DNA of 64,000 nt from Anaerolineae bacterium (GTDB lineage Bacteria; Chloroflexota; Anaerolineae; UBA4142). The stretch is taken from NCBI GenBank assembly GCA_034435055.1, contig DAOTXS010000024.1, positions 342 to 64,341 on the forward strand, in the 5' to 3' direction. The first letter of the stretch is position 1. The number at the start of each line of letters is the position of its first letter. Of this stretch, positions 12,777 to 58,360 are shown piece by piece. A model generated the notes under the pieces. The model made no database searches. It worked only from the letters and a program-made list of their open reading frames with translations, and was not told the DNA's origin. Made by a program: the position numbers and the translations under genes.

Positions 12777-13109
12777 TTATGCCGCTTCGGCGAGCGCGCG
12801 ATGTTCTTTGAAATACGCATCGACCTCGCTGCGTGCTTTTTGAAACTGTTTGATCAGTGCTTCGTCATTCCCTTTATACGAAGCCAGTGTTCGCTTGGCG
12901 CACGCCGAGCAACCCATCAACGCTTTGTAGCGATCCGGGTTGCAATCGAGGCAACTGCATTGGCGGATCATCATCAGCGAGAAGGCAAGACTATCGGGGT
13001 GATCCTCGGGCAGGTTGGCGACACGCTTGGTCAAGTCGCGCCACTTGCCGTTGCGTATCGTCATCAACGATGCGATGCTCTTGTGCGGGAACAAAATCTC
13101 GGCACGCAT
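12777..13109 (-). CDS. Cys-rich hypothetical protein (putative Zn-binding)
   Basis: 110 aa; CSCLDC..CSAC; AGAAAGGA RBS; directly downstream of rnpB. Confidence 0.75.
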   Translation of the reverse strand: MRAEILFPHKSIASLMTIRNGKWRDLTKRVANLPEDHPDSLAFSLMMIRQCSCLDCNPDRYKALMGCSACAKRTLASYKGNDEALIKQFQKARSEVDAYFKEHRALAEAA

Positions 13110-13178
13110 AGTTAATCGACTTCCTTTCTATGGACGCGGATAACGCATCCGCATTGGTTTTTCAATCGGCGATGAAAG

Positions 13179-13582
13179 CGGCAAGCAGCCGTACCCCCGA
13201 TTCTGTTCTGTCCGTCATCTGTCTCACGGCTGGCGCCGTGGTCACGCTTGCGTTGCCGAGTGTTGTTCGGCTTTCACAGCGAAACTGCGACGGGAATCCA
13301 CCGGCTTGCGCCAGCCGATCCCACCCGCCTTGCTCCCAGTTGGACATTCACCTAGCCGCCGATATTGCTATCGACGCTGGTGGGCTTTTACCCCACCGTT
13401 GCACTCCTGACTCGCTTACGCGAGCGGATATGTTCTCTGTTGCAGTTGTCGTCACGCGCCGATTACTCGGCGTGTGCCCTCACTTGTCGTTTCGTGAGGC
13501 AACCGCGTTTCTTGCCGCGGCAAGAAACCGGGAGTCGGGAAGTTCCTCTCGTTGATACGAGCGACGGATCACTTGCTTGCCG
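13179..13582 (-). ncRNA. rnpB: RNase P RNA
   Basis: P1 CGGCAAGCA/UGCUUGCCG, P2 UCCGUC/GACGGA, P4 GAGGAACUUCCCGAC/ACAGAAUCGGGGGUA, UGCAACAGAGAAC, P13 GGUGGG-GUAAAAG-CCCACC, P14 with GCAA loop, GGGAGCAAGG. Confidence 0.95.
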
Positions 13583-13625
13583 AAAATGAGGCGGCAGGGA
13601 ATCGAACCCTGAACCCACAGCTTAA

Positions 13626-14319
13626 CCTACCACACTAGCTTTCGCTAGCCGCGCTTGCGCGCGTTGTAGTCTGGATCATCTCTTTACCCTCGGCTTTGTC
13701 CGGTCGGGTAGATTGCGTATGATCTCTGAGGGCTTGCTTGAAATCGAGATAGGTTTCAAACCAATGAACACCTTTGCGTTGATTGTTCTTTGGTTTATCT
13801 ACTCGAATGACGGTGGTGCCTTTGGCTTCAAGTATTTGATCTACACTCAAAAAGAGAATGATATCTCTTTGCGGAATGTAAACCGCAAACACATCCACGT
13901 CTTTTGATTTGTAGCGATAGCGATATCCCCCGGACCACTCTTCCGAGAATCCACGCTAATTTTGCCTTCTTTGAGATTCCTCGTCTTGACTTGGATTTTG
14001 ATTGGTTGGTCATCAACCAAAACAATCAAATCCACTCGCGCCAAGTCTCCCATTTCGGCAAAGACGCTCAAACCTTTGGACATGAGATGCGCCGCGACAC
14101 GCAGTACGCCAATGGCTCCCAACTGTTTACTATGTAGTTTCATCTATGCCGCTCTCCTGCATAGGGTATCAAACTTTGAGAGCCAATTCAAGGTTGCCTG
14201 CTGATTGCCCACATATCCCTGACATTTTCACGCGGAGTAACGTAGTCAGGGCTTGAGGGTGTTCCAGCATACAGCAATCTGCACTGTCCCAAATTACTTT
14301 GGGCAGGCTCCATTCATTA
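13626..14319 (-). mobile_element. Group I intron (694 nt) in tRNA anticodon, with ORF
   Basis: 5' exon ends in U, intron ends in G; P2 CUGCCCAAA/UUUGGGACAG, P3 AGAUUGC/GCAAUCU, P4 UGCUGG/UCAGCA, P7 G(A)GAUCA (13726-13720)/UGAUCC (13678-13673), P8 UACCC/GGGUA, two GNRA-capped P9 hairpins. Confidence 0.95.
13635..14143 (-). pseudogene. Intron-encoded PD-(D/E)XK homing endonuclease (I-Ssp6803I-like), frameshifted at about 13927-13931
   Basis: AGGAG RBS, ATG 14143; GAIG..VDLIV..KIQVKT motif in frame 1; ..GYRYRYKSKDVDVFAVY.. continues in a second frame to TAG 13637-13635. Confidence 0.85.
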
Positions 14320-14381
14320 AAGGCTGTTGCTCTGCCAATTGAGCTACCGCCCCCTATAAGATTTTAACGTGCGTCAGGCAC

Positions 14382-14408
14382 AAAAATCGGCGTGAGTTCA
14401 TCACGCCG
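14382..14408 (-). terminator. Intrinsic terminator downstream of GAF gene
   Basis: CGGCGTGA/TCACGCCG stem followed by ATTTTT on minus strand. Confidence 0.65.
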
Positions 14409-14518
14409 CAACAGGCGTTTCCCCGTTTGCTTGGGCAGTTTACCACAACTATTTATTGCTTGTCAAGCGTTTTGCCAAGCTCAAATTATGTTAATTGGCG
14501 GCGAAGTAAAGTCGATGT

Positions 14519-14959
14519 TCAAAAGCGAATTGCCAATAATCTAGCAATCTCCTCCAAAAATATCCGATCCGATTCGGTGAACGCCGCCGGCACATCGCTG
14601 TCAATATCGATTTCGCCGAACACACGATTGTCGCGCATAATCGGCACGACGATTTCGCTCCGCGTTTCCAAACTGCACGCGATGTACTCGGCATCGCTGT
14701 TCACATCGTCCACGATCACCGTGTCTTTAATGCGCGCGGCGCGCCCACAGATGCCTGCGCCAATCGGAATGCGTGTGTGTTCGGTGGGGCGACCGCGAAA
14801 CGAATGCAACACCAATGTCTCGCCATCGAGCAAGTAAAGATAAACGCCGGTGTAATGTGGAAAATTTTCTTTGAGCGTTGCGGCAACCAAGTCAAGGAGA
14901 TTAGAGATTGGGGATTCGAGATTTTGTTTGACCAGTTCAATTACTTTTTGTTGATTCAT
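14519..14959 (-). CDS. Stand-alone GAF protein (fRMsr/MsrC-like)
   Basis: RIPIGAGICG, VDDV, YIACS, SEIVVPI, GEIDIDS. Confidence 0.88.
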   Translation of the reverse strand: MNQQKVIELVKQNLESPISNLLDLVAATLKENFPHYTGVYLYLLDGETLVLHSFRGRPTEHTRIPIGAGICGRAARIKDTVIVDDVNSDAEYIACSLETRSEIVVPIMRDNRVFGEIDIDSDVPAAFTESDRIFLEEIARLLAIRF

Positions 14960-58101: not shown

Positions 58102-58275
58102 GAATCCCGAGTTGCTCGCAAAAATGAGATCGTCTCCGTTCGACTCCTGATGCTTGTGTTACAACACGTTCCGCCCGTTGGTTCGGAACATGGCTAAAGA
58201 TGATGAAAAACGAGGATAAAGAATTAGGTGGTCTGGATACTCAAATGATGATATAATAATTATCGTTGGCTCGTG

Positions 58276-58360
58276 TGCCGAAGGAGGGAATCGAACCCAC
58301 AAGAGCGTTTAGCTCACACGATTTTGAGTCGTGCGCGTCTGCCAGTTCCGCCACTTCGGC
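58276..58360 (-). tRNA. tRNA-Leu(CAA); CCA not encoded
   Basis: GCCGAAG/CUUCGGC acceptor, CACGA-CUCAAAA-UCGUG anticodon arm, long variable arm, UUCGAUU T-loop. Confidence 0.95.

Follow-up and report, generated by a model that had tools for sequence, protein, structure and literature searches.

A probable group I intron at position 34/35 of an Anaerolineae tRNA-Lys(UUU) gene, with a homing endonuclease gene decayed by a frameshift

In a 64,000-nucleotide stretch of contig DAOTXS010000024.1 from an Anaerolineae bacterium (hereafter the window), two halves of a tRNA gene lie on the minus strand with 694 nt between them. What separates them, which tRNA would they form once joined, and is the element between them still active? 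An earlier note, made from the letters without database searches, had proposed a group I intron with a homing endonuclease in the anticodon of tRNA-Lys(UUU), and both tRNA halves were found where it had placed them. We consider it very probable that a group I intron occupies position 34/35 of a tRNA-Lys(UUU) gene, and that the PD-(D/E)xK homing endonuclease gene in L6, the loop of paired element P6, has decayed through a +GG frameshift. The 5' half (14353..14320) reads GGGGCGGTAGCTCAATTGGCAGAGCAACAGCCTT and the 3' half (13625..13587) reads TTAAGCTGTGGGTTCAGGGTTCGATTCCCTGCCGCCTCA, its last base being A73. The variable loop is 5 nt and CCA is not encoded. The gene is laid out as follows.

14320..14353, minus strand: tRNA-Lys(UUU) 5' exon, positions 1-34, with acceptor GGGGCGG, D arm, anticodon stem ACAGC and C32 U33 U34; layout from 14353 to 14320, GGGGCGG-UA-GCUC-AAUUGGCA-GAGC-A-ACAGC-CUU
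13626..14319, minus strand: probable group I intron, 694 nt, Lys.3Ug class, starting UAAUGAAUGGAG and ending GUGGUAGG, with omega-G at 13626
13587..13625, minus strand: tRNA-Lys 3' exon, positions 35-73, with U35 U36 A37 A38, GCUGU, variable loop GGGUU, T arm, CCGCCUC and A73; layout from 13625 to 13587, UUAA-GCUGU-GGGUU-CAGGG-UUCGAUU-CCCUG-CCGCCUC-A

As had been anticipated, a standard tRNA scan misses this gene. Indeed, in the whole window ARAGORN with default settings reports only tRNA-Leu(CAA) (58275..58360), and Rfam at the gathering score gives tRNA-Leu(CAA) alone. When introns are allowed (ARAGORN -i) the split cloverleaf is recovered and labelled Asn(gtt), the insertion being put at 33/34. 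For exons joined at 34/35, ARAGORN reports tRNA-Lys(ttt), 73 nt, with a canonical cloverleaf and the anticodon UUU.

This ambiguity between Lys and Asn arises because the exon end ...CCUU precedes a U and the insert end ...GUAGG precedes UUAA; at the 33/34 (Asn GUU) and 34/35 (Lys UUU) junctions alike, the 5' site follows a U and the 3' site follows a G. If the gene were tRNA-Asn(GUU), the intron would sit one position upstream, the 5' exon ending at U33 and the intron at G13627. ARAGORN -i calls Asn(gtt) at 33/34 in the window and in most homologues, and an exon end ..CUU with an intron end ..GG satisfies the U/G rule at both junctions in every family member. Intron-less alleles were sought in one genome per species (GTDB) with the 5'-half pattern TAGCTCAATYGGCAGAGCAACAGCCT, which is blind to the downstream sequence. 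It matched 37 loci, 32 of which are uninterrupted tRNA genes. Among these 32, 29 continue with TTTAAGC (Lys UUU), three with CTTAAGC (Lys CUU; Patescibacteria, Babeliaceae) and none with GTTAAGC (Asn GUU). Three intron-less genes, at loci L016 (Candidatus Aquidulcis), L036 and L051, are identical at 73/73 positions to the window exons joined at 34/35. Moreover, in L036, L045, L046 and L051 the tRNA is followed by GGCAAGCAA, the start of RNase P RNA, as it is in the window, making these empty versions of the locus. With CCUUUUAAGC as the mature sequence, an insert with a terminal G is obtained from the 34/35 junction alone. Hence the intron-less alleles set omega-G at 13626, where the earlier note had put it on the strength of a helix that proved to be mis-registered (see below).

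The tRNA body points the same way. G1-C72 and A73, cited previously as fitting Lys, are present in all family members, as is U35; Lys identity lies in the anticodon and A73, whereas Asn and Asp use G73 (PMC9976931). In 13/13 family sequences, the exon-intron pairing P1 has U33 opposite A and U34 in the U.G wobble. Furthermore, the homologous intron in the seed alignment of Williams 2020 (bioRxiv 10.1101/2020.01.27.920355) was called Lys.3Ug by an isotype-scored pipeline, according to that alignment. In light of these results, the ARAGORN call of Asn(gtt) at 33/34 was rejected on the intron-less alleles and we regard a tRNA-Asn gene here as extremely unlikely, while Lys(UUU) with insertion at 34/35, the earlier assignment, is retained.

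Two further observations concern this tRNA. A G2.U71 acceptor wobble (window 14352 / 13589), which also speaks for Lys, is kept in all Chloroflexota tRNA-Lys genes seen. G2.U71 is listed as an essential determinant for class I lysyl-tRNA synthetase (LysRS) and an antideterminant for the class II LysRS of E. coli (PMC9976931), and its conservation in these genes suggests that these organisms use LysRS-1. Separately, a short, independent Logan contig (L002, SRR10095342) is identical to the window and stops at 14319, the last base common to intron-containing and intron-less Lys alleles (...CCTTT). Judged by its sequence, such an end would look like an assembly-graph branch caused by co-occurring intron-less tRNA-Lys genes; it is two bases off the expectation for an Asn junction.

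The nature of the insert was examined by comparison. From the contigs of endonuclease homologues and two collection scans, 13 distinct introns were gathered, all at the same site of the same tRNA. They were aligned with the L6 insert removed, and a structure of 76 pairs in 14 helices was drawn by hand. The paired elements P3-P9 (P) and their joining segments (J) come in canonical order, with the P3/P7 pseudoknot.

14322..14319 with 14311..14308, minus strand: P1, exon C32 U33 U34 and intron U1 against the internal guide GGAG
14284..14306, minus strand: P2, CUGCCCAAA-GUAA-UUUGGG(A)CAG, GNRA loop, compensatory changes in 8/9 pairs
14274..14280, minus strand: P3 5' strand AGAUUGC, partner 13716..13710, 6/7 pairs invariant, 96.7% of cells paired
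14269..14264 with 14204..14199, minus strand: P4, UGCUGG/UCAGCA, within the P4-P5 domain 14199..14269
inside 14259..14208, minus strand: P5, CCC/GGG, one compensatory pair
14251..14245 with 14223..14217, minus strand: P5a, CCCUGAC/GUCAGGG, compensatory changes in 6/7 pairs
inside 14259..14208, minus strand: P5b, ACGU/GCGU, one compensatory pair
14185..14192, minus strand: P6 5' strand CUUGAAUU, partner 13744..13737, with the endonuclease open reading frame (ORF) in loop L6
13737..13744, minus strand: P6 3' strand AUUUCAAG, which doubles as D-F-K codons of the endonuclease
13719..13726, minus strand: P7 5' strand G(A)GAUCAU, bulged A at 13725, preceded by J6/7 CUCAGA, invariant in 13/13
13710..13716, minus strand: P3 3' strand GCAAUCU, forming the core pseudoknot together with P7
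13686..13709, minus strand: P8, ACCC..CGG-ACAAAG-CCG.GGGU
13673..13679, minus strand: P7 3' strand AUGAUCC, partner of the P7 5' strand
13630..13669, minus strand: P9 domain, P9.0 CUAC (13669..13666) with GUGG (13633..13630), enclosing two GNRA hairpins
13626..13629, minus strand: 3' tail UAGG, omega-G at 13626, YAGG in 13/13 sequences

The ribozyme core that had been described is thus complete, and it includes P6, which was absent from the first list of helices. P1 also has the arrangement described before: C32-G, U33-A and U34.G are formed with intron GAG (14310..14308), one C follows, and then P2. The CG, UA and UG pairs are invariant in 13/13 sequences, and the fourth position is a UG pair in 12 sequences and a CG pair in the remaining one; U34.G14310, UG in 13/13 sequences, is the 5' splice-site wobble. 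P6 in the ORF-less relative L123 is a plain hairpin, CUUGAAAU-UAAA-AUUUCAAG. P7, G(A)GAUCAU/AUGAUCC, has the layout of GAGACUA/UAGUCC in the Williams seeds and is invariant, hence without covariation, and P8 is one C-G pair longer in L026 and L093. The hairpins of the P9 domain are CGCGC-GCAA-GCGCG (P9a) and GCUAGC-GAAA-GCUAGU (P9b), with four and one compensatory pairs, respectively.

One helix had to be redrawn. The note had paired CUAC with GUAG immediately before omega-G; the actual P9.0 is CUAC/GUGG followed by the tail UAGG. In L135 the U.G pair of P9.0 becomes C-G, and its CCAC...GUGGCAGG pairs perfectly in the CUAC/GUGG register but leaves two mismatches in the CUAC/GUAG register, which was rejected on this ground. 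The end of the seed intron Mle24 in the Williams alignment, gcag-cagg, likewise leaves a 4-nt tail.

In the 13 introns, 97.1% of 985 pair cells are standard, and 21 of the 76 pairs have changed on both sides, these being located in P2, P5, P5a, P5b, P9a and P9b. None of 500 shuffles reached the observed percentage of paired cells, either of two counts of both-side changes, or the covariation score; as regards further pair types, the observed count was unremarkable (121/500 shuffles). When the 3' partners were slid by 1-3 columns, pairing fell to 29-41%. The Rfam group I model Intron_gpI (RF00028; curated gathering threshold 50 bits) matched two relatives over its full length (1-253): L123 with 32.4 bits (E 2.9e-6) and L026 with 32.1 bits (E 4.4e-6). 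Moreover, its alignment of L026 puts P1 and P3-P9 at the same positions as the hand-drawn structure. According to Williams 2020 (bioRxiv 10.1101/2020.01.27.920355), the seeds of this model are non-bacterial, and that study worked with 18-20 bits as its cut-offs. A group II intron, an archaeal bulge-helix-bulge (BHB) intron and an insertion sequence (IS) were rejected in view of the full group I core in the insert; the group II model gave one 14-bit chance match, inside rnpB. Rfam in E-value mode found no second group I intron in the 64-kb window and added RNase P RNA only.

The loop of P6 holds the remains of an endonuclease gene, in two frames.

13847..14143, minus strand: N-terminal part of the endonuclease ORF, ATG at 14143, GGAGAG Shine-Dalgarno sequence 8 nt upstream, 98 codons
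13927..13931, minus strand: frameshift site, 5 G against 3 in the intact relative L003 (+GG)
13635..13926, minus strand: C-terminal part of the endonuclease in the shifted frame, YRYRYKSKDVDVFAVY...ALRDHTQSTR..., stop TAG at 13637..13635

The N-terminal part matches PF11645 (PDDEXK_5) over profile positions 2-68 (E 2.8e-10) and leaves the frame after the run of G; the C-terminal part matches positions 80-135 (E 1.7e-7). Scores are 40.8 and 31.8 bits for the separate fragments and 74.6 bits for the frame-repaired ORF (cut-off 26.1). The sole PDB match is 2OST (I-Ssp6803I; E 0.0017), in which the D...DL...QVK motif aligns; I-Ssp6803I is a PD-(D/E)xK homing endonuclease and belongs to the tRNA-fMet intron of Synechocystis (PMC3384342). 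The 32 endonuclease homologues found all carry PF11645 and most are intact, with 148-169 aa. The closest, P0001, is 96% identical and intact (168 aa), and its intron is that of L003. The pairwise alignment of the window and L003 introns displays the +GG, a single difference in the ribozyme part (14193) and 11 substitutions clustered just downstream of the frameshift (13828-13863). Hence the endonuclease gene is a pseudogene in this genome, so that the family match supports the homing endonuclease proposed for this intron while the gene that should encode it is frameshifted in the window.

The alternative is that the enzyme is still made, the +GG being an assembly or sequencing artefact or being bypassed by ribosomal frameshifting, and that the intron is still mobile. 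The insertion does fall in a homopolymer (GGGGG vs GGG), and both ORF halves are otherwise open and still score on PF11645. However, a separate Logan assembly (contig L001) carries the same +GG sequence, and short-read data seldom contain homopolymer errors of 2 nt. Furthermore, the 11 clustered substitutions lie just downstream, and independent disruptions are seen in L012/L037, L017 and L137, together with a deletion in L026; such disruptions elsewhere in the family make decay of the endonuclease the norm. A functional enzyme in this genome therefore appears quite unlikely, and the decayed gene remains our preferred reading.

The coding sequence and the ribozyme also overlap. The last ~35 endonuclease codons (window 13635-13744, minus strand) cover P6', J6/7, P7, P3', P8 and P9. 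The ORF thus extends into the ribozyme core, where J6/7-P7-P3'-P8 encode ...ALRDHTQSTR; almost every homologue keeps this peptide, apparently owing to conservation of the RNA.

Several species carry the intron at one and the same syntenic locus (nuoN-[GAF]-tRNA-rnpB), and equally close relatives have the site empty. Carriers of the intron among the species representatives are Anaerolineales UBA4826 (L017), an uncultured Anaerolineales (L025), Anaerolineae H63_652 (L052) and Chloroflexi/Chloroflexota metagenome-assembled genomes (MAGs; L026, L037). The endonuclease gene has an N-terminal frameshift in L012/L037 and a C-terminal one in L137, and is reduced by a frameshift to 77 aa in L017. In L026 the intron measures 339 nt after an internal deletion which spared the Shine-Dalgarno sequence, the ATG and ~12 codons, and in L123 it measures 264 nt and has no ORF. 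At the empty site L051 both flanks are as similar to the window as those of intron-bearing L008/L052. Read from these sequences, the family at this one locus shows every stage that a homing cycle would comprise: intact, frameshifted, deleted, ORF-less and empty site.

A metagenome scan with the 17-mer ATGATCCAGACTACAAC (P7'/J7-9) returned 81 loci, two of them in the family (L093, L123); the remaining loci are mostly chance matches or classical tRNA-Leu(UAA) introns. The latter are exemplified by L065 and L128 (...GUAGUAAG|AAAAUC), and the metagenome contigs L072, L074, L084, L086, L115 and L129 are probably tRNA-Leu(UAA) introns as well. Given these matches, the sequence of the P7'-P9.0 junction is common to tRNA intron classes.

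How does this intron relate to known ones? The note knew of no characterised group I intron in tRNA-Lys(UUU) and named earlier cataloguing of such introns as a refutation; on that criterion novelty did not hold, since the Lys.3Ug class was already present in Williams 2020 (bioRxiv 10.1101/2020.01.27.920355). As that preprint describes it, Rfam, ARAGORN and tRNAscan-SE isotype scoring were applied to ~80,000 genomes, and the number of bacterial tRNA/group I settings on record grew from 4 to 21. Its supplementary seed alignment, the sole basis for the earlier cataloguing, contains Mle24.Lys.3Ug, Mpe6.Lys.4Ug, Dba165.Lys.2Ug, Pam37.Asn.4Ug and Wba81.Asp.4Ug. In its nomenclature Lys.3Ug denotes insertion into tRNA-Lys between nucleotides 3 and 4 of the anticodon loop, with U-1 and omega-G, and the window intron agrees exactly in site, U-1 and omega-G. 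By its sequence, the window intron is a further member of this class catalogued in 2020.

Among eight seeds of that alignment, Mle24.Lys.3Ug is the closest, with a pairwise local score of 69 against at most 44 for the others, and it aligns from P3 through P9.0. As far as the seed alignment goes, the two introns share the tRNA-Lys host, the site CUU/intron/UUAA (34/35), U-1, omega-G and the P1 guide GGAG. They also have in common UAUAUGCUGGGAC / GGGUAAUCAGCAGG, UCAGAGA, AAGAUAU..UCCAGACU.CAA, an extended P5 arm and the 4-nt tail (c/u)agg. In contrast, Mle24 is G+C-rich, ORF-less and 253 nt long, and the sequences of its P3 (CGCCGC/GCGGCG), P7 (GACUA/UAGUC) and P6 (a short GNRA hairpin) differ from those of the window, which has an endonuclease ORF in L6 and a P7 longer by one pair (GAUCAU/AUGAUC).

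The likeness to cyanobacterial tRNA-Leu(UAA) introns pointed out in the note was borne out. These introns (Leu.3Ug, IC3; cyanobacteria and plastids, e.g. Anabaena, Nostoc azollae) also insert after U34 (CUU/a...g/AAAA) in the same seed alignment, with a short, 3-bp exon P1 (exon CUU, guide GAG) and GNRA loops in P2 and P9. They differ in the host tRNA, in J3/4-P4 (AAAUUCGGGG vs UAUAUGCUGG) and in P7; they are usually ORF-less, and their self-splicing has been characterised experimentally, whereas the window intron is known from sequence alone. The Synechocystis PCC 6803 tRNA-fMet intron resembles the window intron in being an anticodon-loop group I intron with a PF11645 PD-(D/E)xK endonuclease whose catalytic motif aligns, but differs in host tRNA and site (fMet.2Ug), in the low protein similarity (E 0.0017) and in its phylum, Cyanobacteria against Chloroflexota. 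The IC3 introns of Azoarcus tRNA-Ile(CAU) and Agrobacterium tRNA-Arg(CCU), as represented in the Williams material, share a compact IC3-like core, the bulged A of P7 and GNRA loops, but sit at loop position 5 (36/37), are ORF-less, measure ~200 nt and have no P5a/P5b.

Literature searches on group I introns in tRNA-Lys or in Chloroflexi found no paper describing this intron, and according to them the Lys introns appear to be without a bench test to date. Close homologues of I-Ssp6803I are described as generally cyanobacterial (PMC3384342). What may be new is the Chloroflexota host range, the I-Ssp6803I-type ORF in L6 and the decay series.

On this basis a splicing pathway can be proposed. In the precursor, exon C32-U33-U34 would pair with the intron guide GAG to form P1. 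Because the anticodon stem would remain paired, this P1 would be short, like that of cyanobacterial tRNA-Leu introns. An exogenous guanosine, bound in P7, would attack after U34, in the U.G wobble, and its place in the G site would then be taken by omega-G (13626). In the second step, attack by the 3'-OH of U34 after omega-G would join CCUU to UUAAGC. The product would be an ordinary 73-nt tRNA-Lys(UUU), with the expected junction ...ACAGCCUUUUAAGCUGU.... In relatives, the intact enzyme presumably cuts an intron-less tRNA-Lys gene and so lets the intron copy itself in. I-Ssp6803I recognises the pseudo-palindromic DNA of an anticodon stem-loop (PMC3384342), and the same type of target is expected for the endonuclease of the window family. 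By analogy with its action on tRNA-fMet, the empty allele's pseudo-palindromic anticodon-arm DNA (ACAGCCTTTTAAGCTGT) is the putative target, and the intron-less tRNA-Lys site would be a candidate substrate (...GCAACAGCCTTTTAAGCTGTGGG...; GCAGAGCAACAGCCTTTTAAGCTGTGGGTTC). Both the activity and the target of the endonuclease are thus proposed by analogy, and the tRNA gene is presumed to be essential. With the +GG, the window intron would be an immobile passenger whose splicing would still be needed.

Alternatively, the interrupted gene could be a dead copy whose intron no longer splices, another intact tRNA-Lys(UUU) elsewhere in the genome doing the work. The decayed endonuclease gene would fit an element that is old in this genome, of which 64 kb are in view. 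However, the exons are identical to those of functional-looking intron-less orthologues, and the ribozyme is 1 nt away from a copy with an intact endonuclease gene. The core helices are invariant and the peripheral ones stay paired through compensatory changes across species, and together this indicates selection for splicing. In addition, each of the five intron-carrying species-representative genomes has a single match to the 5'-half pattern and therefore no second copy with the same 5' half; one Uhrbacteria MAG has two matches. We consequently judge a dead copy very unlikely and favour an intron that still splices.

Several points nevertheless weigh against a spliced group I intron with a decayed endonuclease gene. 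Splicing and exon ligation are predicted from the structure. Invariance of the catalytic helices P3, P4, P7 and P8 amounts to conservation and not to support by covariation. Intron_gpI gives the window copy only 16 bits, for a partial match (P4-P6) under the 50-bit gathering score; the match is partial because the ORF splits the core. The scores of L026 and L123 are also under the curated 50 bits. The group I model search suggested in the note was therefore successful as regards the full-model match on ORF-less relatives, but not as regards the gathering score or the window copy itself. The frameshift is known from one assembly and from a Logan contig possibly built from the same reads. Finally, the 64 kb in view hold tRNA-Leu(CAA) as the sole other tRNA, and a second tRNA-Lys(UUU) may lie elsewhere in the genome.

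The gene immediately downstream of the split tRNA encodes RNase P RNA.

13176..13581, minus strand: RNase P RNA gene (class A), matching Rfam RF00010 with 92.3 bits (E 3e-28), under the gathering score of 100

It starts 5 nt after A73 of the tRNA and contains two large insertions. The order of the locus is a nuoN-like antiporter subunit, a GAF protein, tRNA-Lys and RNase P RNA, and L051 matches the window on the upstream (GAF) side as well. Most Chloroflexota loci that were fetched have the tRNA-Lys(UUU)-rnpB tandem, whether or not the intron is present, and the gap between the two genes is too short for a promoter. Tentatively, tRNA-Lys and rnpB could form one transcription unit conserved in Anaerolineae, in which case RNase P RNA maturation and the processing of a presumably essential, ribozyme-carrying tRNA would be coupled; we regard this as possible though somewhat doubtful. 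Three steps would act on a single tRNA-rnpB precursor: self-splicing of the group I intron, RNase P cleavage at the 5' end of the tRNA and a cut in the 3' trailer, the last of which would also create the 5' end of RNase P RNA.

On the upstream side, a sigma-70-like promoter match (window 14388-14466, minus strand; TTGACA-18-TAAACT with a TG extension) is followed by a terminator-like hairpin with a T-run (14408..14388), which gives the odd order promoter, terminator, tRNA; this hairpin may be no more than the terminator of the GAF gene (14959..14519). Just downstream of rnpB lies a 110-aa ORF (12777-13109, minus strand) without a Pfam match. Its position is kept in all syntenic relatives (109-110 aa), and in distant ones an HNH endonuclease gene comes next.

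As a member of the Lys.3Ug class catalogued in 2020, the intron opens no new category. Its chief practical value lies in annotation. Because default tRNA finders miss the gene, Anaerolineae MAGs with the intron will seem to be without tRNA-Lys(UUU), and they may be graded incomplete. The tRNA-rnpB tandem is the most interesting loose end. The partnership of an I-Ssp6803I-type endonuclease with a tRNA intron is extended from Cyanobacteria to Chloroflexota, and the chief biological value of the family lies in its homing-cycle series, which allows the decay of the endonuclease and the loss of the intron to be compared cleanly at one presumably essential locus.

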